Origin: a virus
Taxonomy: Duplodnaviria > Heunggongvirae > Uroviricota > Caudoviricetes
Virus record (IMG/VR): IMGVR_UViG_3300005613_000005
Location: 27,213-91,212 of that record
Strand: one strand, 5' to 3'
DNA length: 64,000 nucleotides
The position numbers and the translations under genes were made by a program. How positions within the stretch are numbered: position 1 is the first letter of the stretch; each line of letters begins with the position of its first letter. Positions 14,018 through 55,142 of this stretch are shown here, piece by piece. A model generated the notes under the pieces. The model had not been told where the DNA came from, searched no databases, and saw nothing but the letters and a program-made list of their open reading frames with translations.

Positions 14018-14027
14018 GGGGAGCTCT

Positions 14028-14040: not shown

Positions 14041-14059
14041 GGTCTGCTAGGAGGTGGTT

Positions 14060-14236: not shown

Positions 14237-14247
14237 GTTAAGGGTCG

Positions 14248-14668: not shown

Positions 14669-14684
14669 CTGACACTGTTACGCC
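14669..14684 (+). repeat. 16-nt motif CTGACACTGTTACGCC (copy 2)
   Basis: preceded by hairpin CGGGCGC-gtccg-GCGCCCG. Confidence 0.7.
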
Positions 14685-14697
14685 CCAGCCGCCGCTC

Positions 14698-14710
14698 GAC
14701 CGATCCGACC
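14698..14710 (+). promoter_or_regulatory. upstream motif GACCGATCCGACC
   Basis: 52 nt upstream of ATG 14750. Confidence 0.45.
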
Positions 14711-14749
14711 TCTAGTCAGAACAAACAAGAAACTTTAAAGGAGGTTAAC

Positions 14750-15256
14750 ATGAACCAGAGAGAAGCAGTCTACACCATCACACACTCCATCCTCAAAGAG
14801 CATGGGGTAACTTTCGAAGACGGGGACAACATCAGTTCCGTCATGACTGACGAGTACCGCAAGCAGATCATCGAAGCGATCGTCACCAGTTTCCAGTCCG
14901 GCAAGATCGACTTCAAAGATACTCAAGCGAACCAGGAAAAATTAGGTGACGTGAGCAAGCTCCGCAGCTATACTTCCGGTCTCGTGAGCAACTGGTTCCG
15001 CAAGGACCCTCGCTTCAACGGCAACGTCAAGTATGAAGCCAAGAACCCAGGTTCAAGGGCAGGTCAAGGCGACGCGCAGATGAAAAACTTAAGGCTCCTC
15101 AAGAAACAGTACGAGGGGACAGACAAGGTAAAAGACATAGACGCCGCCATAGCCGACCGCACCGCCGAGCTCAGGGCTGCCAAGGCCAAGAAAGTTGAAG
15201 TAGACTACACAGCGATACCCGAAGAACTCAAGGAAGCTCTCGGCATCACCGAATAG
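14750..15256 (+). CDS. MNQREAVY-family protein, paralog 2
   Basis: AAAGGAGG SD; ~60% identical to paralogs 1 and 3. Confidence 0.65.
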   Translation: MNQREAVYTITHSILKEHGVTFEDGDNISSVMTDEYRKQIIEAIVTSFQSGKIDFKDTQANQEKLGDVSKLRSYTSGLVSNWFRKDPRFNGNVKYEAKNPGSRAGQGDAQMKNLRLLKKQYEGTDKVKDIDAAIADRTAELRAAKAKKVEVDYTAIPEELKEALGITE

Positions 15257-15296
15257 GTCAAGATACAGCCGGCCGCAGGTCAACCGCTTGCGGCCA

Positions 15297-15312
15297 CTGA
15301 CACTGCTACGCC
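15297..15312 (+). repeat. 16-nt motif CTGACACTGCTACGCC (copy 3)
   Basis: preceded by hairpin GGCCGCA..TGCGGCC. Confidence 0.7.
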
Positions 15313-15595
15313 TACCGACCCCGGCCGCTCCCGGCTAGGGACCTGAGTGGGCCAACGTCGGTCAGCTCGCAGCCGCCCTCTCCATCTAATAATTTAAACA
15401 AAACGTACCCCAAAACCCCCTAGGGAAAGACGGACCTCCACCGATCCTCACCGTCCCTGACAGGGCTCCGGTGCTGGCCCTCGTCGGTCAAGTTCTTTCT
15501 AAGTTAGTTAGCTTGCAACAGTCTGTGAGCCGCCCCACCCCCGCCCCTTGCTGTCTTTTGATCTAATAAAATCAAGGGCTTACATGGCCTTATGC

Positions 15596-15610
15596 AACCG
15601 ATCCGAATTA
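15596..15610 (+). promoter_or_regulatory. upstream motif AACCGATCCGAATTA
   Basis: 30 nt upstream of ATG 15626. Confidence 0.45.
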
Positions 15611-15625
15611 TCCTCGAGGTGGTGC

Positions 15626-15901
15626 ATGAGTAAGCTGCAAGTAGTGGGAATAGAGTCCCTGGAAAGTCTACCACGAGTAGTTGCCTGGTGGCTGCGGTGT
15701 AGTTCAAGGTTAAGTTCTGTAGAAGCTGCTGCTAGGATTCCTGGTCCGAGGTTGCTGGAGAAGTTGTATGAGTTCTTGACCACGGTAGACGTAGAAATGT
15801 TTCGCAGCGGATATGGCTCTAGAAACCGTGATGCTAAAGCTTACGATGTTCACTTAGAGGTCTTGTTCGATGAGATTTTGAGGAGAAGGGTATTATGGTA
15901 G
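15626..15901 (+). CDS. hypothetical protein
   Basis: ORF trimmed to ATG 15626 downstream of motif and GAGGTGG. Confidence 0.45.
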   Translation: MSKLQVVGIESLESLPRVVAWWLRCSSRLSSVEAAARIPGPRLLEKLYEFLTTVDVEMFRSGYGSRNRDAKAYDVHLEVLFDEILRRRVLW

Positions 15902-16059
15902 AAACTTTATTCTGGGGCGTGTTGGTGTTGAGCTGTCTGGTGATAAGCAGATGCATCACCGGCCTGACGCTGTGCTGGTTTGAATACGGTCGTATAGGGA
16001 AGATGATAGACGACCGAGCGGTTTCAAAGGGAGAGTACCGTGAAAAAAATAGGGGCTGA
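15895..16059 (+). CDS. small hydrophobic protein (tentative)
   Basis: 54-aa ORF MVETLFWGVLVLSCLVISRCITGLTLCWF..; overlaps next gene start. Confidence 0.3.
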   Translation: MVETLFWGVLVLSCLVISRCITGLTLCWFEYGRIGKMIDDRAVSKGEYREKNRG

Positions 16060-16471
16060 AGATCTGAGAAAGTTGTCGCACCGGTATCAGGCTAAGTTCG
16101 CTGTGTTCTGTGCTGAGCAAGTTACTGAATACCTTGATGATGATACTAGAGAACCGGCCTTGAAAGCCATTGAGACCGCTAGACTGTGGTTAGATGGTAA
16201 AGCCACTGGAGAAGACTGTCGCAATGCTGCTGCTGCTGCTGCTGCTGCTGCTGATGCTGCTGCTTATGCTGCTGCTGATGCTGCTGCTGCTGCTGCTGCT
16301 GATGCTGCTGCTGCTGCTGATGCTTATGCTGCTGCTGCTGCTGATGCTGCTGCTTATGCTGCTGTCGATAATAAAAAAGCAACAGTCAAAGCTCAGTGGG
16401 ATTACTACTATGAGCTGCTCAATTTTGATACCAATTTTGAAAATATAGTTTTAGGGAGAGGGACACCGTGA
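16040..16471 (+). CDS. protein with internal Ala/Asp low-complexity repeat
   Basis: GTG start; unique N- and C-terminal regions flank a (GCT)n-encoded AAAAADAAAYAAA tract. Confidence 0.5.
   Translation: MKKIGAEDLRKLSHRYQAKFAVFCAEQVTEYLDDDTREPALKAIETARLWLDGKATGEDCRNAAAAAAAAADAAAYAAADAAAAAAADAAAAADAYAAAAADAAAYAAVDNKKATVKAQWDYYYELLNFDTNFENIVLGRGTP
16226..16365. repeat. imperfect (GCT)n trinucleotide microsatellite, ~140 bp
   Basis: GCTGCT... interrupted by GAT/TAT; encodes poly-Ala/Asp on + strand (poly-Gln/His on the other). Confidence 0.9.
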
Positions 16472-26742: not shown

Positions 26743-27153
26743 ATGAGAAGATTACTTGTGATACAAGAGCATAATGCGCTTAAGGCCGGAAAGCATTGGG
26801 ACATCCGTTTCGAGGCTCGCGGCGATACGTTCGCCTACGATACCAAACGACCGGAAACCAACGAACCGCGCGGCACGACAGAAAAAGTACTGCGCAGCTT
26901 TGTTATCCCTAAATGCAGATTTCCCAAAAAACGTGAGTATATCCTGGCTATCCAAACCGAAGATCATCCCTGGAAATATAAAGATTTTGAGGGAGAGATA
27001 GAGCAAGGATACGGCAAAGGACACGTTAGACTAGTGTACAACGATGACATTACGGTATACAAGTTCAAAAATGAGAAGATAACTTTTCATTATGGGGGAG
27101 TTGACTACGTTCTTTTCAAGACCAAGAAGAACTGGTTGATGACGAGGAAATAG
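26743..27153 (+). CDS. LigD-type 3'-phosphoesterase domain protein
   Basis: VIQEHNALKAGKHWDIRFE...SFVIPK...AIQTEDHPWKYKDFEGEI..GYGKG matches LigD_N signature (Q.H.A...H.D.R.E ... EDHP..Y..FEG). Confidence 0.6.
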   Translation: MRRLLVIQEHNALKAGKHWDIRFEARGDTFAYDTKRPETNEPRGTTEKVLRSFVIPKCRFPKKREYILAIQTEDHPWKYKDFEGEIEQGYGKGHVRLVYNDDITVYKFKNEKITFHYGGVDYVLFKTKKNWLMTRK

Positions 27154-33135: not shown

Positions 33136-33368
33136 GATTTTTTGAAACTTCTAATTTCTTGTTTGATTTTCAAGAAATGGTCTGTTATTTCAAAATACAT
33201 ACAGATTACATACACAAAAATTATATATGGAACTATGAACGTCCATTACCGCTTATAATTAAAAACGATCGATTGCGAATTAAGATAACAAAACGACCAC
33301 AAGACCTTATATTCTGTCACGAAACGATTGACGAAGCATACGCTGATTATATATTGTTGAGGGGATGA
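33108..33368 (+). CDS. hypothetical protein (tentative start)
   Basis: in-frame ATG 33108; overlaps previous gene. Confidence 0.35.
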   Translation: MSVLQEDSLRFFETSNFLFDFQEMVCYFKIHTDYIHKNYIWNYERPLPLIIKNDRLRIKITKRPQDLIFCHETIDEAYADYILLRG

Positions 33369-33907
33369 TGATAATAGTAGTTTTCGGAAAGATACGCAGC
33401 GGCAAGACTACGGTCACGGACCTGATTTTAAAATATGCTAAGAAACATAAGATTTCATTGCGAAACAAGCGCTTCGGCGGTCCGATATACGAGTCAGTCA
33501 AAGAGTTCTACGCCAAACATGATTTAAAGTTCAGGAAATTCAGGCCGATGTTCGATGCGATGGGACAAGCTTTGTCCGAGCATACATCGTGGGAAGAAGA
33601 TAAGTTATTGACTTATTTTAAAGAAGATTTTGACCCTGACGAACATATCATAGTCGATGACTGCAGGCGCAAGAAACAAGCTGATTTTTTACGGAAACAC
33701 GGTGCGATATTCATCCAAGTTCGATGCGACGACAACATCCGTAAAAAACGATGTAAATCTGGAGAATGGACGGAAAATCATATAAGCGATGATGACTTGA
33801 TCTTCTACCACAAAGACTACGTGATAATCAACAAACAGTCCAAACGAAAACTGAAAAAAAATGTAGATACTATATGCAAATTGATATTCGGTAAAATATA
33901 TGAGTGA
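33365..33907 (+). CDS. P-loop kinase (polynucleotide/dNMP kinase-like)
   Basis: Walker A VVFGKIRSGKTTV; DDCRRKKQ; ATGA-coupled to downstream phosphoesterase. Confidence 0.55.
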   Translation: MMIIVVFGKIRSGKTTVTDLILKYAKKHKISLRNKRFGGPIYESVKEFYAKHDLKFRKFRPMFDAMGQALSEHTSWEEDKLLTYFKEDFDPDEHIIVDDCRRKKQADFLRKHGAIFIQVRCDDNIRKKRCKSGEWTENHISDDDLIFYHKDYVIINKQSKRKLKKNVDTICKLIFGKIYE

Positions 33908-37336: not shown

Positions 37337-39976
37337 ATGTCAGATAAAATGAGTAGTTTTGCAACCAATATCATGCAGATGAAATATTCACATACGAAAG
37401 CTGATGATACTAAAGAAACATGGGAAGATATAGCACGACGAGTCACGAAAAACGTGATGGCTGAAGTGCCGATCGACAGAAAATTAAAGAAAAGGATAGA
37501 ACAGGCAATATGCGATCGAAAATTTATCCCTGCTGGACGGTATCTGTATGCTTGCGGTCGCCAATATCATCAGGTGCAAAACTGTCTGCTTCTAAGAGCA
37601 GAAGACAGTCGAGAAGGTTGGGCAGAGTTACTGCATAAAGCAGCTATGGCACTGATGACCGGTGCGGGAATAGGCATAGACTATTCTGGCATCAGAGCTG
37701 AGGGCAAAAAAGTTCGCAAGACTGGGGGTTTCGCGACGGGACCTTTGGCGTTGATGCAGATGATGAACGAGTGCGGTAGAGGGATAATGCAGGGAGGTTC
37801 ACGACGTTCTGCCATATGGGCTGGATTATCCTGGCAACATCCTGACATACACAAGTTCATAGACGCGAAAAACTGGCCGTCCGAGATACGTGAGCTGAAG
37901 AGCAAGAATTTCAATTTTCCGGCCACGTTGGACGGCACTAATATATCGGTCATACTAGACGATGAATTTTTCAAAGCGTACAACAACGATCGTCATAGTA
38001 AACATGCCCACGCGCATTCAGTGTATTGGGCTACCATCAAGCGTATGCTAAAGACCGGCGAACCTGGATTTTCAGTTAACTTAGGACAGAACTCCAAAGA
38101 AACACTTAGAAATGCTCCAATTCATAGTAATACACATGTACTTACTAAAAATGGTTATAAACAAGTGATAGATATTGTTAATAAGCCAATAACAATTTGG
38201 ACAGGTAAACAATGGGCTCGAGATGTAGTATTTCATAAAACAATTGAAAATGCAGAGTTGATAAAAGTGAAATTTAGCAATAATCGAGAGATTGTATGTG
38301 AACCTAATCATGAATTTCTAGTTGAAAAATATATTGGAAAAGGCAAAAAATATCGTAAATTAGAATCAATTGATCGAGTTCGTGCCATAGATTTACAAGC
38401 TCAAGATATATTACATGTCAGCATGCCTACATATTATGAAAGTTCATTTGATGAAAATGGATATACTTTTGGGTATATATATGGCGATGGATGTTTTCAT
38501 AAAATATTACCTAGAGCTGAAATAACATTTTGTACTACTGAGTCACAAAAATGTTCTAAATATATAAATACTAAATGGCTAACAAAATCAGACGTTTATA
38601 TGGAAAATAGAGGATATCTACAAGCAAATACAAAAAATTTAGATATACTTAAAAATAGATGTAAATCTATGTTTCCCATAGATATATATGCTAAAGACAT
38701 CAATTTTATATGTTCTTTTATAGCTGGCTTATTTGATGCAGACGGTAATTATGTTCAAAAACGACAGTTATTAAGATTAGGTAGTATACACTTTAATTTT
38801 TTAAAAGGAACTCAGCGACTTTTAGATCAAATAGGAATAAGTAGTTCTATTATTAAAGGCAGTACCGGTAATTTTAAAAATAGTTCTAGCAAATCATGGT
38901 TTTTAATTATACATAGTAACTCTATAAAACATTTTCAACAATTAATACCTACAAAAAGAATAAATGTATGTGCTGATAATTATAATCCTTACAGACAAAC
39001 ATTGATTAAAGTTAAATCGATTGGTTTATTGGACGAACACAGTGACGTATATTGCTGTGATACTAAAGTACCAGAACATAGTTTTATGGCTGAAGGAATA
39101 ATAATATCGAACTGCACTGAAGTGTGCAGCGAAGACGATTCTGATATATGCAACCTAGGTTCTATCAATATGGCAGCGATAGACACGATAGAAGAGTTCA
39201 AGAAGGTCGTAGAACTAGCCACTGCGTTCTTGTTGGCAGGTACTCTATACTCCGATGTTCCTTATCCTAAGGTAGATCAGATCCGATCTAAGAATCGTAG
39301 GTTAGGACTAGGAGTGATGGGCGTTCACGAATGGTTGTTGAAACGAGATAAACCATACGCTCCTGACGAAGAACTAGGTAAATGGTTGGAGATATACGCT
39401 ACGTCAACCGAGATAGCAGCGAGGTATGCCGAACAATGGGACATATCTAAGCCTGTTAAAACTCGAGCTATCGCACCTACAGGAACTATTGGTATACTAG
39501 CAGAAACTACTACCGGTATAGAACCAATCTTTGCTGTTGCCTATAAGCGCAGGTATCTCAAACACCATACATGGCATTACGAGTACGTCGTAGATCCATG
39601 CGCGGCTCGACTAATTGAATCAGGAATTCCAGAATATAAAATCGAGGACGCCTTTAAACTATCGGAAGACATTGAGAAACGCGTCCAGTTTCAAGCGTGG
39701 GTGCAGCAGTACGTAGACCATGGCATATCTTCTACTATAAACTTACCGGCGTGGAAATCCCAACACAATAACGATTACAAGATATTACCGTTCGGTGAGA
39801 TGTTGTTGAAATACTTGCCCAAACTACGCGGCATAACGGTTTTTCCAGACGGCAGTCGCAGCGGTCAACCGTTGACTCCTGTCAAATATAGCACAGCGGT
39901 AAAATATACTGGAGAAGTAGTACAAGAACAAGCCGATATATGCTTAATAACTAAAGGTGGATCATGTGGCGAATAG
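37337..39976 (+). CDS. nrdJ: ribonucleotide reductase, class II-like (NrdJ-type), interrupted by an intein
   Basis: N-terminus ETWEDIARRV resembles monomeric class II RNR; no ATP cone; active-site segment ..NLGQN/CTEVCSEDDSDICNLGSINM parallels SNLCLEI...VCNLASL of RNRs; ~340-aa AT-rich insert carries LAGLIDADG (FIAGLFDADGNYV). Confidence 0.7.
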   Translation: MSDKMSSFATNIMQMKYSHTKADDTKETWEDIARRVTKNVMAEVPIDRKLKKRIEQAICDRKFIPAGRYLYACGRQYHQVQNCLLLRAEDSREGWAELLHKAAMALMTGAGIGIDYSGIRAEGKKVRKTGGFATGPLALMQMMNECGRGIMQGGSRRSAIWAGLSWQHPDIHKFIDAKNWPSEIRELKSKNFNFPATLDGTNISVILDDEFFKAYNNDRHSKHAHAHSVYWATIKRMLKTGEPGFSVNLGQNSKETLRNAPIHSNTHVLTKNGYKQVIDIVNKPITIWTGKQWARDVVFHKTIENAELIKVKFSNNREIVCEPNHEFLVEKYIGKGKKYRKLESIDRVRAIDLQAQDILHVSMPTYYESSFDENGYTFGYIYGDGCFHKILPRAEITFCTTESQKCSKYINTKWLTKSDVYMENRGYLQANTKNLDILKNRCKSMFPIDIYAKDINFICSFIAGLFDADGNYVQKRQLLRLGSIHFNFLKGTQRLLDQIGISSSIIKGSTGNFKNSSSKSWFLIIHSNSIKHFQQLIPTKRINVCADNYNPYRQTLIKVKSIGLLDEHSDVYCCDTKVPEHSFMAEGIIISNCTEVCSEDDSDICNLGSINMAAIDTIEEFKKVVELATAFLLAGTLYSDVPYPKVDQIRSKNRRLGLGVMGVHEWLLKRDKPYAPDEELGKWLEIYATSTEIAARYAEQWDISKPVKTRAIAPTGTIGILAETTTGIEPIFAVAYKRRYLKHHTWHYEYVVDPCAARLIESGIPEYKIEDAFKLSEDIEKRVQFQAWVQQYVDHGISSTINLPAWKSQHNNDYKILPFGEMLLKYLPKLRGITVFPDGSRSGQPLTPVKYSTAVKYTGEVVQEQADICLITKGGSCGE
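38093..39112 (+). other. intein with LAGLIDADG homing endonuclease domain inside RNR gene (approximate boundaries)
   Basis: insert begins at Ser after ..LGQN and ends ..IISN immediately before catalytic-type Cys (CTEV); markedly lower GC than flanking extein. Confidence 0.6.
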
Positions 39977-41480: not shown

Positions 41481-42182
41481 ATGGCTGAAAAGAACAATTT
41501 GAACGATAATGGAGATGAAACTTGGGTATACAAATTCGATGAAGAAGCAGCTCACAAATTCCGAGTTGACGTTAAGAACAAATCAAAGAGGGATCCCAAC
41601 GCGCCTATCATAGTCTACATCGACTCATACGGTGGAAACGTTGATGGCATGGCTAAGATGATAGATACCATGGACGAGATCCCCAATCCTATCATAACAG
41701 TATGCATGGGAAAATCTATGTCTGCTGGGGCTATCCTGTTGTCGCACGGTGACATGCGTTTCTGTTCAAAGAACAGCAGGATAATGATCCATGAGCTTTC
41801 AGCAGGGGCTTTTGGGAACGTTCGCGACATCGCCAACGATACCGATGAGTTGATGAGGATGAACAGGCATTGGATAGGTTTGCTGGCCAAGAACTGCTGC
41901 ATAAGCGGTGGTTACAACGGTATACGCAAAGTCATAAAAGACAACGACAACCAGAGCATCTATCTGGACGCTGTTATGGCAAAACAGTTCGGCATCGTCG
42001 ATTGCATCGGTGTTCCGACCACCAACGCCGCGGTCTTGTACGAGGTCCTGACGTTAAAAGAAAAAGAAAAGAAACACATGCGCATGGAAGACTTCGAGAA
42101 ACTCCAGAAGAAGATAGCAAAACAGGGTGCTAAGAAAAAAGCACGCAAGAAAAAAGCTACGAAAAAGAAAACTAAAAAATGA
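41481..42182 (+). CDS. ClpP-like serine protease (S14 family-like) with Lys-rich tail
   Basis: IVYIDSYGGNV...CMGKSMSAGAILLSHGD.RF...RIMIHEL matches ClpP core motifs. Confidence 0.6.
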   Translation: MAEKNNLNDNGDETWVYKFDEEAAHKFRVDVKNKSKRDPNAPIIVYIDSYGGNVDGMAKMIDTMDEIPNPIITVCMGKSMSAGAILLSHGDMRFCSKNSRIMIHELSAGAFGNVRDIANDTDELMRMNRHWIGLLAKNCCISGGYNGIRKVIKDNDNQSIYLDAVMAKQFGIVDCIGVPTTNAAVLYEVLTLKEKEKKHMRMEDFEKLQKKIAKQGAKKKARKKKATKKKTKK

Positions 42183-42516: not shown

Positions 42517-42672
42517 ATGAGTCTGATAATGGTTAGATTTTTAGTAATTATTGGGATGATTGTATTTTTCACTGTACTAGGAACCTCTATGGGATATGCT
42601 ATAGGGTATGAAAAAGCATATATCAAAGCTAAAACTAGTGAGCGAAGAAAAAAAGACCGTCGAAAAACCTAA
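42517..42672 (+). CDS. small membrane protein
   Basis: 51 aa with TM segment. Confidence 0.35.
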   Translation: MSLIMVRFLVIIGMIVFFTVLGTSMGYAIGYEKAYIKAKTSERRKKDRRKT

Positions 42673-42685
42673 AGAAGGAGAAAAC

Positions 42686-43540
42686 ATGAAATTATTTTTA
42701 TTATTGTGTATGCTGCTCGTGGGTACCAGCGCATTCGCCAAAAATGACAAGAAGCTCGACGTTGTTCTAAAAGATGATAACTTTTTTGCGGTTACTTCAG
42801 TCTTTACAGAACGTCTTTTAGAAGACTTCAATCGTAAAGTTATGACTTACGACGGCGATGAGCTCATCGTGTACATCGATAGCCCAGGAGGCAGCGTATT
42901 TTCTGTAGCGCGCATGGTATCTATAATGAGGTCATCTGAGGTTAAATTTACTTGCGTAGCTCGTTTCGCCGCTTCTGCCGCGTTCACGATGTTTCAAGCC
43001 TGCACCAACAGGTATATCTTGTACGATGGTATCATAATGCAGCACAATGCTTCTGGTATTTTCTGGGATGAATTTCCCAGGATCGAAACATTATATACCG
43101 CGATCAAAGATATAGTTACCGATATGGAAACACAGACAGCAAAAAGGATGAAGATGGAGTTCAAGGATTTCAAGGTGGCCATCAACAACAACCTGTGGTT
43201 GTCTAGGATCACCGCTCCAAAATACAACGCGATCGACGCCGTGATAAACACTATAAAATGCGAAGAGTCACTGATCAAGAAAACCATCACTAAAGCAGAA
43301 AGAAAATGCGGTTGGTTCAGCTGTTCGACTACCTATAAAAAATATTCAGCGTGCCCGCTGTTAACCCTTCCTCTTCCCGAACCTCCTAAAAAAGATAAAC
43401 CTGCTGATGATGGATGGTACGACGATGAATTCTACGATGGACATCCTTTATATCTTCCGTTTGATGAAAAAATCAACACGAACATCAAGAACTTCATGCA
43501 CATAGCCCCTTATACTATTAAAGATAAGATCATGAAATAA
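42686..43540 (+). CDS. secreted ClpP/S49-like serine protease paralog
   Basis: AAGGAG SD; signal peptide MKLFLLLCMLLVGTSAFA; LIVYIDSPGGSV...ARFAASAAFTMF...IIMQHN. Confidence 0.55.
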   Translation: MKLFLLLCMLLVGTSAFAKNDKKLDVVLKDDNFFAVTSVFTERLLEDFNRKVMTYDGDELIVYIDSPGGSVFSVARMVSIMRSSEVKFTCVARFAASAAFTMFQACTNRYILYDGIIMQHNASGIFWDEFPRIETLYTAIKDIVTDMETQTAKRMKMEFKDFKVAINNNLWLSRITAPKYNAIDAVINTIKCEESLIKKTITKAERKCGWFSCSTTYKKYSACPLLTLPLPEPPKKDKPADDGWYDDEFYDGHPLYLPFDEKINTNIKNFMHIAPYTIKDKIMK

Positions 43541-48123: not shown

Positions 48124-48595
48124 TTATCGTTTCAAGACCTTTATGTAACTTGTCTAGTATATCATAGAAATTTTTCTTGAGATCTTTCTCTTTCTTTCGT
48201 TCTTTGAGCTGCCGTTTAGCTTCTTCATCACCGCGTATCGCCCATTCAGTAAGTCTAGCAGCGTTAGCACTGCTGACTTTCGGTTTATGCCCTTTCTCTT
48301 CTTTTACGACTGGAGCACCAACACCTATGCGAGCATCAGACGATCCCTTGCGTCCCAGCTGTGCCTGTGCCATCTGACCAGCGCGCAGATCTTTTATAGA
48401 CCGAGCACCGATCTTTGACTCGGCCGCCGCAGCTGAAGCTTTTATCTTCTTGGCCTTCTTCTCAGCTTCTTTGGTTTCTTTCTCGGACAGTTTTTGGACG
48501 CCTTTCTGAGGACCAGAGGGTCTTATCATTATCCGTCTTACCTTCATGAGGTCTTCGAGTTCCTGCAACGCTTTTCTTACACGAGACTTATCCAT
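48113..48595 (-). CDS. Lys-rich hypothetical protein
   Basis: 160 aa; GATATAAT -10 upstream on minus strand. Confidence 0.5.
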   Translation of the reverse strand: MDKSRVRKALQELEDLMKVRRIMIRPSGPQKGVQKLSEKETKEAEKKAKKIKASAAAAESKIGARSIKDLRAGQMAQAQLGRKGSSDARIGVGAPVVKEEKGHKPKVSSANAARLTEWAIRGDEEAKRQLKERKKEKDLKKNFYDILDKLHKGLETIKNA

Positions 48596-48705
48596 GACAA
48601 TCTCCTAGTATGTTAAAAGAATATATTAAGATTATATCAGTTTTTAAGGTTAGAAAAATTTTTTCCAGATACGTGAAAAATTGCAGTTAGTTAAAAATAA
48701 AAATA

Positions 48706-48714
48706 TGGTATAAT
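48706..48714 (+). promoter_or_regulatory. extended -10 promoter TGGTATAAT for tRNA array
   Basis: ~120 nt upstream of first tRNA. Confidence 0.4.
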
Positions 48715-48836
48715 TAACCCTATGAAACAAACATTGCGCTCCTTATATTTATCGTCATGTAGACCTGATCACAGGTCCAGCGTAGTGTTCTATTTTAGTA
48801 ATAATAGATAATTAAATAAAGTTCACTACTTAGCTT

Positions 48837-48912
48837 GAGTCGGTGGTGATAACGGTAACACGTCAGGCTGTTAACCTGTAAGATCTAGGTTCGATTCCTA
48901 GCCGGCCCGCCA
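48837..48912 (+). tRNA. tRNA-Asn(GTT)-like, possible pseudo-tRNA
   Basis: cloverleaf with A2:C71 acceptor mismatch and weak anticodon stem; loop ctGTTaa; encoded CCA. Confidence 0.4.
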
Positions 48913-48935
48913 AAATTGAATAGGAGATTTAACGA

Positions 48936-49012
48936 GCCACCGTAGCTCAGAATGGCAGAGCGCGGGCCTGAAGAGCCCGGTGTCGGAGTTTCGATACCTC
49001 CCGGTGGCACCA
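48936..49012 (+). tRNA. tRNA-Phe(GAA)
   Basis: acceptor GCCACCG/CGGTGGC, loop ctGAAga, T-loop, CCA. Confidence 0.8.
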
Positions 49013-49046
49013 GGTATTTGAAAAACGAATAGTAGAATGAGATTGT

Positions 49047-49342
49047 GGAGACGGCAAGACCGTTACTGGGAGGTGAAAACCCCTGGAGGATAAAGTCCGG
49101 ACACCGAAGAGCAGCGTAGTGGCTAACGGCCACCCGTCAGGAAGACGAGGACTAGTGGAACAGAGACGAGCCAGTTAAGTCTGGAATGAAACGGCTAAAC
49201 TCTACGCGGTGCAACGCCAAATAGGCTAGCTATTGACCTATGCTCGGGGGACGTTGGCGGGTAGGCGGCAGTGAGCTGGAAGGTAACGACCAGCCCAGAT
49301 AGATTACGGTCGAGGTACAGAATCCGGCTTATTACCGTCTCC
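49047..49342 (+). ncRNA. rnpB: RNase P RNA (bacterial type A-like, reduced)
   Basis: GGAGGATAAAGTCCGGAC (P4 5' strand), GTGGAACAGAGACGAGCC, CGGTGCAACGCCAAATAGGC, GGGTAGGC..CAGTGAGC, GTACAGAATCCGGCTTAT (P4 3' strand); P1 pairing GGAGACGG/CCGTCTCC. Confidence 0.75.
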
Positions 49343-49370
49343 ATCCGGCCAGGAACAATCTCAAAACAAA

Positions 49371-49471
49371 GGAAGACTTATCCGAAAGATTCTGGGTAGC
49401 GGAGACTGTCTTGAAAACAGTTTGGTGAAATATAAGTAGCCGTCAGGGTTCGAATCCCTGGTCTTCCGCCA
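49371..49471 (+). tRNA. tRNA-Ser(TGA), long-arm type, unusually long (101 nt)
   Basis: acceptor GGAAGAC/GTCTTCC, loop ctTGAaa, long variable arm, CCA. Confidence 0.55.
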
Positions 49472-49473
49472 AA

Positions 49474-49557
49474 GGGGTATCTGCGGAGTGGGATCCGCGC
49501 GAGCCTGTAGAGCTCGTGCCGCTGCGCTAGGAGGTTCGATTCCTTAATACCCCACCA
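49474..49557 (+). tRNA. tRNA-Tyr(GTA)
   Basis: acceptor GGGGTAT/ATACCCC, loop ctGTAga, 13-nt variable arm. Confidence 0.7.
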
Positions 49558-49560
49558 GAC

Positions 49561-49636
49561 GCTCACGTAGCCCAACGGGAGAGGCAGCAGCTTCAAACGC
49601 TGAAGAGTGTTGGTTCGAATCCAACCGTGAGTACCA
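49561..49636 (+). tRNA. tRNA with anticodon CAA (Leu-reading) but short variable arm
   Basis: 76 nt, loop ttCAAac, 5-nt variable region, discriminator A. Confidence 0.5.
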
Positions 49637-49637
49637 A

Positions 49638-49714
49638 GCGGAGGTAACCCAACAGGAAGAGGTAGCAGGCTTAAACCCTGTTCAGCATGGGTTCAAATCC
49701 CATCCTCCGCACCA
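49638..49714 (+). tRNA. tRNA with anticodon TAA (Leu-reading), short variable arm
   Basis: acceptor GCGGAGG/CCTCCGC, loop ctTAAac. Confidence 0.55.
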
Positions 49715-49715
49715 C

Positions 49716-49788
49716 GCCTCGGTGGTCTAACAGATAAGGCACTGGTCTTCTAAGCTAATTGATGTGGGTTCGACTCCTACCTGAGACA
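49716..49788 (+). tRNA. tRNA-Arg(TCT)
   Basis: loop ctTCTaa; C2:A71 mismatch and weak anticodon stem; no encoded CCA. Confidence 0.45.
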
Positions 49789-49792
49789 CTAT

Positions 49793-49882
49793 GGAAGGTA
49801 AACTGGCATGGTGCCAGGCTTGCCTGCTAAGCAATGCGCGCTCTTATACGGGCGTATGGTTCGACTCCATTGCCTTCCGCCA
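49793..49882 (+). tRNA. tRNA-Ser(GCT)
   Basis: 90 nt, loop ctGCTaa, long variable arm, CCA. Confidence 0.7.
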
Positions 49883-49973
49883 AGTCTATTTAAAAATATA
49901 GTAAAACAACAATATGCATAATTATGTGCATCAACGGCTGTTTGAACAGCAATGGTAACAGAAAGTAGACATT

Positions 49974-50297
49974 ATGTCTAAAATTAAAGTTAAATTTGAA
50001 GAGCCTAGTTTTTGTAGTTACGACAATGTTTGGAAAATTTCATGGACTATAAACGGACGCAGAACTAATTCTTTCAGTAGTCGTGGCAAAAGAATAGGCC
50101 AGACTATCTCGCCTAAACAAATAGCAAATGAATATCGAGAGGCATTAAAAAGAGGACAAATTGTAGTTGATTTTTTAACTCAAAAAATCACCCGCAAACA
50201 AGCTATCAATAATTTAAAAGACCTGCGATTTCTATGCCCTAAAAACCAAACATCACATTTATTAACATTAGCAGAATTTGCTTTAAATTTACGTTAA
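49974..50297 (+). CDS. hypothetical protein inside tRNA array
   Basis: 107-aa AT-rich ORF between tRNA subclusters. Confidence 0.4.
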   Translation: MSKIKVKFEEPSFCSYDNVWKISWTINGRRTNSFSSRGKRIGQTISPKQIANEYREALKRGQIVVDFLTQKITRKQAINNLKDLRFLCPKNQTSHLLTLAEFALNLR

Positions 50298-50298
50298 T

Positions 50299-50376
50299 TG
50301 GTGTCCTCGACCGGATTTGAACCGGTGTCTCCGGAGTGAAAGTCCGATATCCTAGACCTGACTAGACGACGAGGAC
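50299..50376 (-). tRNA. tRNA-Glu(TTC), opposite strand
   Basis: rc GTCCTCG...ctTTCac...CGAGGAC-A-CCA. Confidence 0.75.
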
Positions 50377-50377
50377 C

Positions 50378-50455
50378 TGGTACTCGGGAGTGGACTTGAA
50401 CCACCGACCTCTGCCTTATCAGAGCAGCGCTACTAACCAACTGAGCTACCCGAGC
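50378..50455 (-). tRNA. tRNA-Ile(GAT), opposite strand
   Basis: rc GCTCGGGTAGCTCAGTTGGTTAG...ctGATaa...GGTTCAAGTCC. Confidence 0.8.
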
Positions 50456-50614
50456 ATGTTCGTTTCTGTTTACAGATTGTATGGGATAACGGGTGCGCGT
50501 TTACGCAACAGACAACTCAACGCACACCTTACATTCGATCTCAATAATAATAAGTTCAAGTGTACGTTTCATCATTAACCCATTATACCACACTTTGTTA
50601 GGTATAAATAATAT

Positions 50615-50812
50615 ATGGATAAGATAAGTAAGTGCGATAAACATCCTAAGTATAATGGATCGAAGAAACCCAGGACTGATTGCGATCAGTGTTGGAAGAT
50701 ATATTTGAAAAAACAAGAACGCAAGAAACGCGTGCCGATCAGACCGACCAAAGTGATACCAGACAAGACCAAGTACACGCGCAAGAAGAAACATAAGAAA
50801 AAAGAGGAGTGA
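50615..50812 (+). CDS. hypothetical basic protein
   Basis: 65 aa Lys-rich. Confidence 0.45.
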   Translation: MDKISKCDKHPKYNGSKKPRTDCDQCWKIYLKKQERKKRVPIRPTKVIPDKTKYTRKKKHKKKEE

Positions 50813-50814
50813 GT

Positions 50815-51093
50815 ATGTCAGTGACAGTAAGTTATCTACTCTCAATGGAAAAAAGTTTAAAAGCCAGGTTAGGCCAACTCAAAGAACTAAGGAGCGAGGT
50901 CTCAACGCTCGAGAGATGGGGCGACAGGGACAAGATCAAAGAACCGCAGTACGATGTAAAGGCGGTAGACAAGATGATAAGCGACATCAACAAGGTCCTG
51001 TTCGAGATCGACCAGAAGATCAAGGAGAGCAACGCTCGCACAAAAATTAAGATTAACGTAGACTATAACGAGTTAATGTCAGAGATCAAGTAA
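50815..51093 (+). CDS. hypothetical coiled-coil protein
   Basis: ATG 50815 after GAGGAG. Confidence 0.45.
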   Translation: MSVTVSYLLSMEKSLKARLGQLKELRSEVSTLERWGDRDKIKEPQYDVKAVDKMISDINKVLFEIDQKIKESNARTKIKINVDYNELMSEIK

Positions 51094-51298
51094 GCGATTA
51101 CTTGCATCCACGACATAGAAGAGGACTGACTTCGATGTCGAGAGAAGAACGTTCCACACTAATGCTGGACGCGTGGTATGACCCCGCATAAAACATTGTT
51201 GTTGATCAGGGGTGCTCACAAATTGTCCGTTGATTGTGGTTGGTTGTTGTCTTTAGTTCTTCTCGTCCTCTTTTTTTTATCACTTAATAAAAATTATA

Positions 51299-51307
51299 TG
51301 GTATAAT
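51299..51307 (+). promoter_or_regulatory. extended -10 promoter TGGTATAAT for second tRNA block
   Basis: upstream of 51500 tRNA block. Confidence 0.4.
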
Positions 51308-51499
51308 GTATTTTATGATTACTAACTTTATAAATCTCATAGTTCAGATACTGAAAGGAACATGTCAAGGCGTGGATACCAACGCCATGGTTCCTTGTCG
51401 TGTGCGTGCTGCCCGACCTATGCGACATATAAAGGCGCCATGGCGTAAGTAATCAAAATCTAGTAAGCAAATCAAATTAAATTTAATAGGTTTTGACGA

Positions 51500-51575
51500 G
51501 GGCTGGTGGTGATAACGGCCAACACGCCGCGCTTGCACCGCGGAGATCAGGGTTCGATTCCCTGCCGGTCCACCA
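51500..51575 (+). tRNA. tRNA-Ala(TGC)
   Basis: acceptor GGGCTGG/CCGGTCC (two G:U), loop ctTGCac. Confidence 0.7.
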
Positions 51576-51612
51576 AGATTTTTGACAACTGAATAGGTAG
51601 ATCATAAAACGA

Positions 51613-51687
51613 TGGGGAATAGTGCAATGGCTAGCACGACGGGCTTTGAACCCGTTAGTGGTGGTTCGAATCCACCTTCCCCAACCA
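51613..51687 (+). tRNA. tRNA-Gln(TTG)
   Basis: U1:A72, loop ctTTGaa. Confidence 0.75.
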
Positions 51688-51688
51688 T

Positions 51689-51764
51689 GCGAGTGTAGCT
51701 CACCGAGAAGAGCGTCGGTCTTCCAAACCGAAGGCAGCGGGTGCAAGTCCCGCCTCTCGCTCCA
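51689..51764 (+). tRNA. tRNA-Gly(TCC)
   Basis: loop ctTCCaa; one acceptor mismatch. Confidence 0.65.
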
Positions 51765-51765
51765 T

Positions 51766-51842
51766 GCCAGAGTAGCCCAATTGGAAGAGGCATACGGCTT
51801 AGACCCGTAGTGTTGTGAGTTCGAATCTCACCTCTGGTACCA
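51766..51842 (+). tRNA. tRNA with anticodon TAG (Leu-reading), short variable arm
   Basis: acceptor GCCAGAG/CTCTGGT, loop ctTAGac. Confidence 0.55.
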
Positions 51843-51843
51843 A

Positions 51844-51920
51844 CTGAGTGTAGCGCAGTCTGGTAGCGCGCCTGGCCTGGGCCCAGGAGGTCGGAGGTTC
51901 GAATCCTCCCACTCAGACCA
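51844..51920 (+). tRNA. tRNA-Pro(TGG)
   Basis: acceptor CTGAGTG/CACTCAG, loop ccTGGgc. Confidence 0.75.
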
Positions 51921-51929
51921 AGTAAACGA

Positions 51930-52004
51930 TGGCGCTTGGTGTAACAGATAGCATATCAGGCTACGAACCTGAAGATGAGGGTGCAATTCCTTCAGTGCCA
52001 ACCA
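51930..52004 (+). tRNA. tRNA-Arg(ACG)
   Basis: U1:A72, loop ctACGaa. Confidence 0.7.
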
Positions 52005-52011
52005 TATATAT

Positions 52012-52086
52012 GCCCGCGTGACCGAGTAGCTTAGGACACGGACTGCAAATCCGTGCACGCTGGTGCAAATCCAGCCGCGGGCTCCA
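52012..52086 (+). tRNA. tRNA-Cys(GCA)
   Basis: acceptor GCCCGCG/CGCGGGC, loop ctGCAaa. Confidence 0.7.
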
Positions 52087-52087
52087 C

Positions 52088-52163
52088 AGACGAGTAGCTC
52101 ACCGAGAAGAGCGCTAGCCTTACAAGCTAGAGGCAGTGGGTGCGAGTCCCTCCTCGTCTACCA
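52088..52163 (+). tRNA. tRNA-Val(TAC)
   Basis: A1:U72, loop ctTACaa. Confidence 0.65.
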
Positions 52164-52164
52164 T

Positions 52165-52244
52165 GGGCGTGTATCGGCTTACTCTTATAAGGTATAGAAA
52201 CCGTAATTGGAGACATGGAGGTTCGAGTCCTCCCACGCCCACCA
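52165..52244 (+). tRNA. atypical tRNA-like gene (anticodon undetermined)
   Basis: perfect acceptor GGGCGTG/CACGCCC and T-arm but no canonical D/anticodon arms. Confidence 0.35.
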
Positions 52245-52245
52245 C

Positions 52246-52319
52246 GCTCCATTAGTTCAGTGGCAGAACTGCTGTCTTGTAAACAGCGTACAGAGGTTCG
52301 ATTCCTCTATGGAGCTCCA
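52246..52319 (+). tRNA. tRNA-Thr(TGT)
   Basis: acceptor GCTCCAT/ATGGAGC, loop ctTGTaa. Confidence 0.8.
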
Positions 52320-52320
52320 G

Positions 52321-52394
52321 GGGCGGTTAGTGTAACGGCAGCACGTCGGCTTCCAAACCCGACAGTTTGGGTTCAAATCCTAAGCCGCCCGCCA
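52321..52394 (+). tRNA. tRNA-Trp(CCA)
   Basis: loop ttCCAaa. Confidence 0.7.
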
Positions 52395-52398
52395 ACGA

Positions 52399-52473
52399 GG
52401 TGCTATAGTGTAGTGGTTATCACGCCGGACTGTCTATCCGGAGACCGGGGTTCGATTCCCCGTAGCACCGCCA
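52399..52473 (+). tRNA. tRNA-Asp(GTC)
   Basis: acceptor GGTGCTA/TAGCACC, loop ctGTCta. Confidence 0.8.
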
Positions 52474-52492
52474 GATAAGGTATAATATCAAC

Positions 52493-52762
52493 GTGATAAC
52501 AACGATCAGTAAAAAAATTTTAGATATACTTTTAAACGTGACCGCAACGAACAGTCATGAAAAATGTCCTTACTGCGAACGAACTTTAAAGTACGACAGG
52601 ATAGTTGAGTGCGATATATACGAATCCGTTCATCCTACCAACTACGGTATGTGGTTTACGTTCACGTATAAAAAATGCCCGTGCAACTACGGCCCTTCTA
52701 CTGTAAGCAATCACTTGATCATCGATCATCTTCTATATAAATTAGGTATCAGGTACACGTAG
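52493..52762 (+). CDS. hypothetical Cys-rich protein inside tRNA array
   Basis: 89-aa ORF (CPYC...CPC); TATAAT upstream. Confidence 0.4.
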   Translation: MITTISKKILDILLNVTATNSHEKCPYCERTLKYDRIVECDIYESVHPTNYGMWFTFTYKKCPCNYGPSTVSNHLIIDHLLYKLGIRYT

Positions 52763-52800
52763 TCAAATTTGAGTTTTTAAACATATTTAAAGACCTAGAT

Positions 52801-52875
52801 GTGACTATAGTGTAACGGTCAGCACGAGAGGTTGTGGTCCTCTAAGTGAGGGTTCGAGTCCCTCTAGTCACCCCA
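52801..52875 (+). tRNA. tRNA-His(GTG)
   Basis: loop ttGTGgt; discriminator C73; no encoded G-1. Confidence 0.75.
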
Positions 52876-52944
52876 GGTCAATAAAAAATTTCCGATCGAA
52901 CGGGGGAAATCTGCAGCTTGGAAATTATACGGTATAATATGTAT

Positions 52945-53020
52945 GGCGGGATAGAGCAGTGGTCAGCTCACAGGTCTCATAAGCCTGGCGTCGGTGGTTC
53001 GAATCCACCTCCCGCTACCA
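52945..53020 (+). tRNA. tRNA-Met(CAT) (elongator-type, or Ile-lysidine)
   Basis: loop ctCATaa; lacks initiator hallmarks. Confidence 0.7.
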
Positions 53021-53623: not shown

Positions 53624-53826
53624 TGGGACGATTACTGTGCTTGATTGGTTTTCACGCTTATGTCCCAGACAAAAAGTACGGCGACGGCTGGGAGATATGC
53701 GCTCGCTGTTCGCAGCGACGTCTGGTTATACGGTGTATGTGGTACGATGACTATAAGAAACTCCCTGACGATGTTAAGGCTAAGGGTAATTTCGTAGGTT
53801 TACCTGACGAATCGGAGGATGTATGA
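53620..53826 (+). CDS. Cys-rich small protein
   Basis: 68 aa. Confidence 0.45.
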   Translation: MMGRLLCLIGFHAYVPDKKYGDGWEICARCSQRRLVIRCMWYDDYKKLPDDVKAKGNFVGLPDESEDV

Positions 53827-54266
53827 AAAAGAAAGCTATCATAGTTGACCTGGACGGAACCTTGTGCAACACCAAGCATCGCAACCATATACTGGAAACA
53901 AATCCCGGCAACTGGGACAAGTTCAACGAGGGTATCCCGTTTGATATCCCCAACCCGTGGTGCATGGAAATAGTAGAGAACTTCGCGAAAGAAGGGTATC
54001 ACATCCTTTTCGTCACCGGCAGAAACTCCAACACACACGACGCTACGGAGCAATGGTTAAGAACTTACCTGAACCCGACCGTCCAATGGGACCTGCACAT
54101 GAGACCCGACCACAACTACATCGCAGATACCATAATTAAAACAAACATCTATTTCACTAAGATACTGCCATTCTACGACGTGGTGTTCTGCGTCGACGAC
54201 AAACGTTCCATATGCGATCTGTGGAGAAGTTTAGGACTAGTAGCCCTTCACTGCGAAGATTACTGA
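53823..54266 (+). CDS. HAD-superfamily phosphatase (polynucleotide 3'-phosphatase / nucleotidase-like)
   Basis: motif I IIVDLDGTL (DxDGT); FVTGR; C-terminal CVDDK. Confidence 0.6.
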   Translation: MKKKAIIVDLDGTLCNTKHRNHILETNPGNWDKFNEGIPFDIPNPWCMEIVENFAKEGYHILFVTGRNSNTHDATEQWLRTYLNPTVQWDLHMRPDHNYIADTIIKTNIYFTKILPFYDVVFCVDDKRSICDLWRSLGLVALHCEDY

Positions 54267-55042
54267 TTCTCGGGGATTATATCTTCGCCCGACTCGTCGA
54301 TGATTATGTCGGGATCAAACTCTTCTTTCTTAGGTACTGTAACATCTATCTTGACTATCCCTTTACGGTTCGTACGCTTATATAAATCTTTGATCAGTTT
54401 CTTGAGTTCTTTTTCGTCGGGCGCATTCGACATCTTAGCTATCCTTGATCTTCGTAAGTTACCCCGCTTCTTGGGTTGAATTATGTTGTCGGCGATTCCC
54501 AACGACACTGCTTCACTCGCGGTTATGTAGACGTCACGCTGCAAGATGTCGTTCCAGAAACTTTCCGGCATATGTGAGTTCTCTGCGAATAGTTTGTCAA
54601 GCTTGCTTTGCAGGTCCTTAGTTGATTTAGCTTCGATCTGTACGTCGGTATGCTTACCCTCTATCTCGTCCAACCCGTCGTGCAACATTATCTCAGTGTT
54701 GGGATATAAGTTCCTTTCATCACATATCGCCATAAGCCAGGTCGCCGCTGATGCTATCTGTCCGCCGCCGAAAAACTTAACCTGACAAGGGCAAGACAGT
54801 ATGACGTCGACCAGACGCAGCATCGACGTGGCACTACCACCGCACGACTGTATATGTAACTCTATAGGTTTCTTAGGATTGTCTGATACTAATAGGTGGA
54901 TAGCTCGAACAGCTTTCTCAACGGTGTTCCAACTGAACTCTTCGTGTCCCTCATCGTTCAACACGCCAAAATATATGCGCCGCATCTTACGATCAAAGTT
55001 TCTCTCAAAAATCTCCTCGACACGGCTGTTTTTATCAGACAT
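54260..55042 (-). CDS. ClpP-like serine protease, third paralog
   Basis: start trimmed to M27 (MSDKNSRV) which has AGGAG + TGGTATAAT upstream; IELHIQSCGGSATSMLRLVDVI...TEIMLHDG. Confidence 0.55.
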   Translation of the reverse strand: MSDKNSRVEEIFERNFDRKMRRIYFGVLNDEGHEEFSWNTVEKAVRAIHLLVSDNPKKPIELHIQSCGGSATSMLRLVDVILSCPCQVKFFGGGQIASAATWLMAICDERNLYPNTEIMLHDGLDEIEGKHTDVQIEAKSTKDLQSKLDKLFAENSHMPESFWNDILQRDVYITASEAVSLGIADNIIQPKKRGNLRRSRIAKMSNAPDEKELKKLIKDLYKRTNRKGIVKIDVTVPKKEEFDPDIIIDESGEDIIPENQ

Positions 55043-55061
55043 CTTCACTCCTATTGATACT

Positions 55062-55070
55062 ATTATACCA
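55062..55070 (-). promoter_or_regulatory. extended -10 promoter (TGGTATAAT on minus strand)
   Basis: rc of 55062..55070 followed by AGGAG and ATG 55042. Confidence 0.4.
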
Positions 55071-55142
55071 CCGTGAACGTAGTATGCTATCGTGCGAGTT
55101 TCAATAACCGATTCGATCAATATTCAGAATTGAGGTGCATGT

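Follow-up and report, generated by a model that had tools for sequence, protein, structure and literature searches.

The RNA of ribonuclease P (RNase P) belongs to the small number of ribozymes common to all cellular life, and viruses are, to our knowledge, normally considered to lack its gene. Here we describe a gene for this RNA embedded in a large array of tRNA genes from a metagenomic phage. The stretch of DNA that was analyzed, hereafter the window, comprises 64,000 nt (positions 27,213 to 91,212 of IMG/VR record IMGVR_UViG_3300005613_000005), and the gene occupies positions 49047–49346 of its + strand. The tRNA cluster of phage T4 encodes stable non-tRNA molecules of about 140 nt (species 1 and 2, or RNA C and D), which are freed from tRNA-cluster precursors by host enzymes including RNase P. 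Like the phage ribozyme, these are small RNAs encoded within a phage tRNA cluster; unlike it, they are unrelated to RNase P RNA.

Other described systems share some properties with this locus. According to reports on organelle rnpB genes (PMC4264200, PMC3590771), cyanelle and plastid genomes and jakobid mitochondrial DNA resemble the phage in that a dependent genome keeps an RNase P RNA gene together with tRNA genes, the protein being supplied from another genome. Organelle genes descend vertically from the endosymbiont and some of the plastid RNAs are defective, whereas in the present case a virus carries the gene, which appears to have been acquired horizontally. Mycolicibacterium austroafricanum and M. 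sp. YC-RL4 contain extra RNase P RNA copies with altered specificity domains, situated beside an endonuclease gene and of suspected horizontal origin; these copies lie in bacterial chromosomes and no phage or tRNA-array context was described for them (PMC9569102). Huge phages, in turn, carry dozens of tRNA genes and sometimes a transfer-messenger RNA (tmRNA) gene (Al-Shayeb 2020, PMC7162821), and several of the RNase P-bearing arrays reported below also contain tmRNA. The molecule that we describe is an ordinary representative of a familiar RNA family, and what is new is its place in a viral tRNA array for which no cognate protein gene was found.

A complete type A RNase P RNA gene in the window

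A cmscan search of the whole window against Rfam 15 identified positions 49047–49346 (+) as family RF00010 (RNaseP_bact_a), with 179.6 bits (gathering score, 100 bits) and an E value of 2.4e-56. The match spans model positions 1–367 of 367 and is not truncated, and the Rfam scan of the window reported no better-scoring family of the RF00010 clan at these positions. A preliminary description of the locus, made from the letters of the sequence and its open reading frames (ORFs), had already recognized a type A RNase P RNA from a series of conserved sequence blocks, all of which are indeed where it had placed them, and the covariance-model scan bears out that identification. The presence of an RNase P RNA gene in a phage tRNA array is thus a real observation, far beyond chance.

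The secondary structure was derived by hand from the cmscan alignment, checking each pair, and contains standard pairs throughout P1, P2, P3, P5, P7–P11 and P15–P18, plus a 4-bp P12 and the pseudoknots P4 and P6. All the helices by which it had been proposed to check the fold (P1–P4, P10–P12, P15 and P18) can be formed. P1 pairs positions 49047–49057 with 49332–49342, and its suggested closure by GGAGACGG/CCGUCUCC (49047–49054 with 49335–49342) consists of canonical pairs. The 5′ strand of P4 (AAGUCCGGA, 49093–49101, with a bulged U at 49096), equivalent to E. coli A66–G74, pairs with the 3′ strand at 49323–49330, contained in the conserved sequence ACAGAAUCCGGCUUA (49317–49331). This pseudoknot, between the conserved strands AAAGUCCGG and CCGGCUUA, has eight standard pairs with the U bulged, and an A:U pair occupies the place of E. 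coli G74:C353, a position that covaries among relatives (GC in eight, AU in six). The hand-built structure also places P6 between 49109–49113 and the L17 loop (49241–49245). P15-P16-P17 extends over 49215–49267, with the L15 sequence GGGU at 49259–49262, and is followed by the P18 hairpin (49275–49294), with a GUAA loop and all six pairs covarying in the alignments of 15 and 32 related sequences described below.

The specificity domain (S-domain, 49114–49207) comprises P7–P11, J11/12 (ACAGAGACGAG), a mini-P12 at 49171–49184 and an AUGAAAC joiner. P13 and P14 are absent; in the cmscan alignment, stretches of 28 and 49 model positions are represented by 12 and 11 nt, respectively. The earlier suggestion that most of the P12–P14 region had been lost consequently applies to P13 and P14 only, because P12 persists as a 4-bp hairpin and both J11/12 (ACAGAGA) and the GUGAAAC-like joiner are kept. 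The lack of P13 and P14 does not disqualify the RNA from membership in RF00010, since there are cellular members that also lack them.

Conservation of residues for catalysis and substrate binding

The window RNA was compared with E. coli M1 RNA, using an M1 sequence 100% identical to the annotated rnpB and aligning it through R1, a covariance model derived solely from the window RNA. The M1 residues conserved in the window RNA are A65–G73 with the bulged U69, A118, A233/A234, A248/A249 in J5/15, A254–G259, the CCA-binding residues G291–U294, A328–A334 and A347–A352. The conserved joiners J5/15, J18/2 and J2/4 are also present, and it is the GGGU at 49259–49262 that aligns with E. coli G291–U294. 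In type A RNase P the GGU of L15 pairs with the 3′-CCA of the tRNA, whereas adenosines of the J11/12 and J12/13 type in the S-domain contact the T and D loops.

Covariation among phage relatives

Relatives of the window RNA were gathered from public collections by means of conserved and clade-specific sequence motifs. The closest was found in locus L287 (on the same contig as L325), scoring 246 bits with R1. The L287 array reads Asn, Asn, Phe / RNase P / Ser(tga), Tyr, Leu(taa), Arg(tct), and continues with Ala, Gln, Gly, Leu(tag) and Pro, and then Thr, Trp, Asp and His; the ribozyme gene is thus in the same slot as in the window, separated from tRNA-Phe by 2 nt and from tRNA-Ser by 8 nt. The same slot (Asn, Phe / RNase P / Ser, Tyr, Leu, Arg) occurs also in L313 and L324. 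Among the 84 base pairs compared between the window and L287 RNAs, 52 are identical, 25 show compensatory double changes, five show single changes that maintain pairing, and only two are broken; the two RNAs agree at 65% of the paired and 83% of the unpaired positions. The 25 compensatory double changes against two broken pairs indicate that the fold is under selection and that this is not a decaying pseudogene.

Larger alignments led to the same result. In 15 viral sequences, 97.5% of the pair cells contained standard pairs, compared with 34–41% when the 3′ partners were slid by 1–3 columns, and double changes were seen at 67 of the 84 pairs; in 32 distinct sequences sharing a 25-mer of the window S-domain these values were 95.3%, 35–43% and 71 of 84. 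The alignments were fitted to the model structure, which somewhat inflates the paired percentages, although this explains neither the size of the effect nor the pairwise count for L287. The P4 sequence is near-invariant in cellular RNase P RNAs. Among the phage relatives it shows independent compensatory changes (AACGUCC.../...GGCGUA, AAGGUCGGG/CCCGCCUA and GUCCCG/CGGGC), and compensatory double changes in P4 were seen in L313, L324, L325/L287, L336, L337 and L340, with pairing kept as the sequence drifts. Altogether, we consider it practically certain that this is an RNase P RNA gene and that it is maintained by selection. No protein similarity was found between the window and the loci carrying the closest ribozymes, so that a shared phage lineage is not supported.

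The tRNA array around the ribozyme gene

ARAGORN identified 22 tRNA genes at 48837–53020, 20 of them on the + strand, and the Rfam scan identified 20. The preliminary description had counted about 24; the number is 22, plus one tRNA-like element. With 22 genes in 4.2 kb, or around five per kb, it satisfies the definition of a tRNA array unit (at least 20 tRNA genes at a density of at least two per kb) given by Tran et al. 2015 (PMC4758250). All but one of the 22 genes encode the 3′ CCA, and most spacers are of 1–4 nt.

As had been proposed, the ribozyme gene lies between tRNA-Phe and tRNA-Ser and in the same orientation. Upstream are tRNA-Asn(gtt) and tRNA-Phe(gaa) (48837–49012, with Phe at 48936–49012; ARAGORN and Rfam tRNA model), the latter ending 34 nt before P1. 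Downstream, ARAGORN places tRNA-Ser(tga) (49384–49471), Tyr, Leu(caa), Leu(taa) and Arg(tct), all on the + strand within 49384–49789, with spacers of 1–3 nt and CCA encoded in four of the five. Genes for tRNA-Glu and tRNA-Ile on the − strand (50299–50455) separate this block from a second one (51500–53020, +) that contains 13 tRNA genes and the tRNA-like element. An AT-rich intergenic region between a minus-strand ORF and tRNA-Asn (48596–48836, +) would be the likely site of a promoter for the first block. There are two weak sigma-70-like matches (48594–48622 and 48722–48749), no more than expected from shuffled sequences, and no terminator-like site was found on the + strand between 48837 and 49789.

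Alone among the tRNA genes of the array, that for tRNA-Arg(tct) (49716–49789), the last of the first block, does not encode the 3′ CCA. The tRNA-like element (52164–52245) occupies an 82-nt gap between tRNA-Val and tRNA-Thr and was missed by both ARAGORN and Rfam; it has an acceptor stem of 7–8 bp, a canonical T arm (GGAGGUUCGAGUCCUCC) and an ACCA end, with an aberrant D/anticodon region. The array covers every amino-acid specificity except that of tRNA-Lys.

Cellular counterparts and probable origin

The S-domain without P13 and P14 was used as a search pattern against bacterial contigs, with one genome per species. It retrieved at least 120 bacterial matches, mostly from Burkholderiales (Polaromonas, Variovorax, Hydrogenophaga, Rhodoferax, Simplicispira), with Omnitrophota, Planctomycetes and others also among the matches listed. 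These cellular RNAs score 130–167 bits with R1, and none of the 120 bacterial matches listed has more than two tRNA genes within about 4 kb. The loss of P13, P14 and P18 was described as "not uncommon" in bacteria (PMC8172020). Since the ordinary chromosomal rnpB of Burkholderiales and other bacteria shares the reduced S-domain, this is not a phage-specific minimization, and the view of the molecule as a minimized type A ribozyme, as put forward initially, is misleading.

The rnpB genes from Burkholderiales, L185 and L227 among them (examples are those from Simplicispira psychrophila, Polaromonas and Variovorax), coincide with the window gene in their helices, catalytic core, J11/12 and GUGAAAC joiner, and in a mini-P12 hairpin with a UUARGU loop. 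They differ in standing alone, with 0–2 tRNA genes nearby and the cognate rnpA elsewhere, whereas the window copy lies inside a phage tRNA array, carries two extra nucleotides in J3/4 and shares at most about 73% identity with the cellular copies that were sampled. Over aligned model positions the best cellular identity among the sampled genomes was at most 73.5%, versus 74.6% to L287, and in a neighbor-joining tree the viral sequences are on long branches outside the Burkholderiales cluster. The tree is too crude to date or count acquisitions and was used only to conclude that the capture is not recent. Because the architecture and sequence of the phage RNA match the kind of rnpB found in Burkholderiales chromosomes, the donor was probably a Burkholderiales-like bacterium from which the gene was captured long ago, probably being inherited and exchanged among phages thereafter as part of tRNA arrays.

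Recurrence in metagenomic viral contigs

Two motif scans of IMG/VR revealed at least 79 loci with an RNase P RNA according to model R1. At least 48 of them, representing 38 distinct sequences of 207–387 nt, have three or more co-oriented tRNA genes within 1.5 kb, and at least 31 have tRNA genes within 200 nt on both sides of the RNase P RNA. The Rfam cut-off was passed by 13 of the 16 viral loci tested, and contigs with an array-embedded RNase P RNA reach 463 kb. Additionally, searching metagenomes from the Joint Genome Institute (JGI) with the exact 25-mer of the window S-domain identified 32 more contigs, 21 of which contain at least three co-oriented tRNA genes.

Some of these phages unite tRNAs, a tmRNA and an RNase P ribozyme in one RNA gene cluster, with tmRNA genes found in or next to the arrays of L302 (10741–11084), L298 (479–871), L289 (2368–2685) and L303 (11520–11873). 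Two RNase P-bearing arrays include tRNAs with a CUA anticodon (amber suppressors, labeled "tRNA-Pyl" by ARAGORN; L287, 592–666, and L306, 7622–7696), which hints at stop-codon recoding in these phages. The array-embedded homologs in L066, L104, L016/L083, L076, L042, L037 and L028 are only 207–260 nt long, score below the Rfam gathering threshold and lack P18 and/or large parts of the S-domain or of P15–17; these short sequences are candidate natural mini-RNase P RNAs or, alternatively, decayed copies.

Among 50,697 GenBank phage records, blastn searches with about 25 diverse queries, sensitive enough to detect a Salmonella rnpB at 74% identity, identified no convincing case of an RNase P RNA; likewise, neither megablast with the tRNA region nor blastn with the window ribozyme produced any match in these records. 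The one match resembling rnpB in a record named for a cultured phage, that in Microcystis phage MaAM05 (L154, MW495066.1, 109323–121417), is situated among fliM, fabI, engB, mtgA and glyS, and looks bacterial; this record may be contaminated or misassembled. The other blastn matches were misfiled bacterial contigs or unannotated fecal fragments named "Bacteriophage sp.", and were rejected as examples of rnpB in cultured phages.

The searchable literature yielded no earlier account of an RNase P RNA encoded by a phage, and the molecule is not mentioned in Al-Shayeb 2020 (PMC7162821), in a 2026 jumbo-phage review or in surveys of tRNA arrays. A search with all Rfam models on two megaphage genomes reported only tRNAs and a tmRNA (PMC8172020). 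RNase P RNA genes in phage tRNA arrays are, then, real and recurrent and, as far as can be told, undescribed. Their qualification as rare in the preliminary description holds for cultured phages and the searchable literature, but not for metagenomic viral contigs, where they recur dozens of times.

The phage contig

The window is part of the 157,173-bp contig k141_2301005, from the ENA metagenome assembly ERZ27256772. It contains genes for a tail sheath protein (phrog_279, E = 5e-37) and a virion structural protein (phrog_1004), as well as for a NUDIX protein, an ATP-dependent DNA ligase, ClpP-like proteases, a dATP/dGTP diphosphohydrolase and a PNKP-type HAD phosphatase. Just upstream of the window lie a Phi812-like tail tube gene and large tail genes, and downstream of it a thymidylate synthase gene and numerous small ORFs; phage-type genes flank the tRNA array on both sides in the same contig. 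The nearest cultured phage, judged by the tail sheath, is Myxococcus phage Mx1, with 30% identity. The contig belongs to a tailed phage of an undescribed lineage.

Possible function of the phage RNA and alternative explanations

The preliminary description had seen no recognizable rnpA gene in the window, and a profile search of all its six-frame ORFs agrees with this, yielding nothing better than E = 0.4 with a local profile made from three sequences and run with no positive control. One match to an RNR-like motif falls in an ORF with no Pfam match. In the flanks, up to about 10 kb past each end of the window, neither an rnpA-like gene nor Pfam Ribonuclease_P was found among the called genes, which brings the part of the contig searched to around 84 of 157 kb, and no RnpA-like protein is encoded next to any of the viral homologs of the ribozyme. 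Since no phage rnpA was found, the phage RNA would bind the RnpA protein of the host. Heterologous RnpA proteins can replace that of E. coli and are interchangeable between bacteria (PMC3308948).

We propose that the ribozyme would be transcribed in a single polycistronic precursor with tRNA-Asn, Phe, Ser, Tyr, Leu, Leu and Arg, and freed from it by the same nucleases that release the tRNAs. A cut by RNase P at the 5′ end of tRNA-Ser would set the 3′ side of the ribozyme; in L287, where the spacers are only 2 and 8 nt, this cut must define it. The phage RNA would then assemble with host RnpA, raising or preserving RNase P activity during infection, and the tightly packed, CCA-encoding tRNAs of the phage would be cut apart and matured. 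With such tight spacing, RNase P cleavage would itself be the step that separates neighboring tRNAs, and a study of E. coli presents the separation of polycistronic tRNAs as the essential role of RNase P in this bacterium (PMC7049720). Considered as a whole, a functional phage RNase P RNA that processes phage pre-tRNAs appears likely to us from the anatomy of the locus.

Several observations weigh against this proposal. The window RNA has a 2-nt insertion in J3/4, beside the active-site helix (GGAGGA-UA-AAGUCC; GGAGGAUAAAGUCC), that is in none of the aligned relatives and that could impair catalysis; it also has a U-U mismatch in P2, a 2x2 A-A/A-G internal loop in P18 and an L9 of 5 nt that is not a clean GNRA loop. 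(The J3/4 variant GAGGATAAAGTCCGG, tried as a search motif in IMG/VR, retrieved 34 loci, none with an RNase P RNA, and these were dismissed as chance matches.) Across arrays, the presence of GGU in L15 did not correlate with that of encoded CCA, and hence does not support a functional coupling. Because neither promoter nor terminator signals exceed the shuffled background, co-transcription is argued from orientation and spacing only. The negative result for rnpA covers only about 84 of the 157 kb, with the uncontrolled profile mentioned above. Lastly, in phages related by their DNA ligase (45–49% identity; L155–L157) no RNase P RNA lies up to 10 kb from the ligase gene; this comparison thus shows no synteny and indicates that the ribozyme gene is not universal even among relatives.

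Some of these same features would suit a different role. If no phage partner exists, any activity in vivo must use the host protein, and an abundant phage RNA might serve as a decoy that captures limited host RnpA, starving or redirecting host RNase P, with its own catalysis secondary or unnecessary. The unusual insertion beside P4 in the window copy, and the departure of P4 in several relatives from the near-universal consensus with its pairing kept, are consistent with this possibility. We nevertheless consider it unlikely, because a protein sponge needs no substrate-binding elements, whereas the T-loop-binding joiners of the S-domain, the GGU of L15, A248 in J5/15 and the bulged U of P4 are all conserved; moreover, the entire fold covaries, S-domain included, and placement in a tRNA array fits a processing role more directly. 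The plasticity of the P4 sequence within the clade, the unrecognized tRNA-like element in the array and the many small ORFs of unknown function around it might also point to a shifted specificity, either for substrates beyond pre-tRNAs (the tRNA-like element, phage mRNAs or the RNA's own precursor) or through a phage protein unrelated to RnpA. Nothing speaks positively for such a shift, the substrate-recognition elements are canonical and related loci show no conserved ORF alongside the RNA, and we therefore hold it to be quite improbable.

Phages do acquire host RNA genes, and the nearest cellular sequences share the architecture of the window RNA, so that a host rnpB could have been picked up together with tRNA genes and be drifting as a non-functional passenger; the heavy shortening of some viral homologs (207–260 nt), below the Rfam cut-off, would agree with this. 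The pattern of substitutions largely refutes such a scenario, which is in our judgment very improbable: the window and L287 RNAs show 25 compensatory double substitutions against two disruptions, with the changes clustered in stems, at least four contigs keep the slot in the array, the feature recurs in at least 38 distinct viral sequences, and the sampled genomes offer no close cellular donor (at most 73.5% identity, versus 74.6% to L287). It is scarcely credible that the arrangement is an artifact of assembly or binning, by which a bacterial segment with tRNA genes and rnpB was joined to phage DNA, or that the contig is not viral. Admittedly, the contig derives from a short-read metagenome assembly of one sample (its name, k141_2301005, is in the style of MEGAHIT), the RNA segment has a G+C content of 0.56 compared with about 0.41–0.46 in its surroundings, and many RNase P matches in IMG/VR that are outside arrays lie at contig ends and resemble the host flanks of proviruses. 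Yet phage-type genes flank the array on both sides, a raised G+C content is normal for tRNAs and structured RNAs, and independent contigs from other samples show the same arrangement; furthermore, since none of the 120 bacterial matches listed has more than two tRNA genes nearby, these provide no bacterial source from which array and ribozyme could have come together.

Other features of the window

A gene for the large subunit of a class II-like ribonucleotide reductase (37337–39976, +) is split by an intein with a LAGLIDADG homing-endonuclease domain. Three genes resembling ClpP-family proteases are found within 14 kb (41481–42182, +; 42608–43540, +; and 54260–55120, −), two of them matching prohead-protease PHROGs. 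The PNKP-type HAD phosphatase gene (PF25109, E = 5e-27; 53823–54266, +) comes directly after the tRNA array, and genes for a LigD_N-type phosphoesterase (26743–27153) and an AAA_18/DNMK-like kinase (33365–33907) are found at other places in the window. Combined with the ATP-dependent ligase, these proteins could constitute a set for the healing of RNA or tRNA ends.

Positions 11500–16000 form a G+C-rich island (0.50–0.58, versus about 0.40 around it) of low coding density, with four short called genes, intergenic gaps of 0.8–1.1 kb and no PHROGs match among its ORFs. Two of these ORFs (13450–13962 and 14750–15256) are paralogous, being about 70% identical over 227 nt, and the 18-nt motif CACTGACACTGYTACGCC is repeated at 14000, 14667 and 15295. 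The sole Rfam hint near the island is a sub-threshold isrG-like match at 16210–16363 (34.6 bits, cut-off 100). The region could be an acquired island or a carrier of unrecognized RNAs.

Implications

Phage genome annotation pipelines should run RNase P models, and contigs such as those described here may mislead completeness checks in which rnpB serves as a marker confined to cells. The viral homologs, with lengths of 207–387 nt and compensatory changes in P4, constitute a set of natural mutants in which to study what the ribozyme minimally requires. A bolder and rather doubtful extension, advanced here tentatively, is that the ribozyme has been repeatedly built into the arrays of large phages as part of a self-contained "tRNA factory", becoming the enzyme chiefly responsible for maturing phage tRNAs when host transcription or host RNase P has been shut down or attacked, possibly with phage-specific properties such as a relaxed P4 sequence, a length reduced to as little as about 210 nt, and an activity that either dispenses with RnpA or relies on a phage cofactor. 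If this were true, the universal RNA-processing ribozymes of cells would have their first member encoded by a virus, and its homologs would form a natural series of minimized RNase P RNAs.

A phage-borne copy under clear purifying selection, present in dozens of independent viral contigs, extends the translation-support genes of viruses, comprising tRNAs, tmRNA and synthetases, to the maturation of tRNA. It also provides a handle on why phages carry large tRNA arrays, since the question of whether processing capacity limits the use of their tRNAs is now testable.

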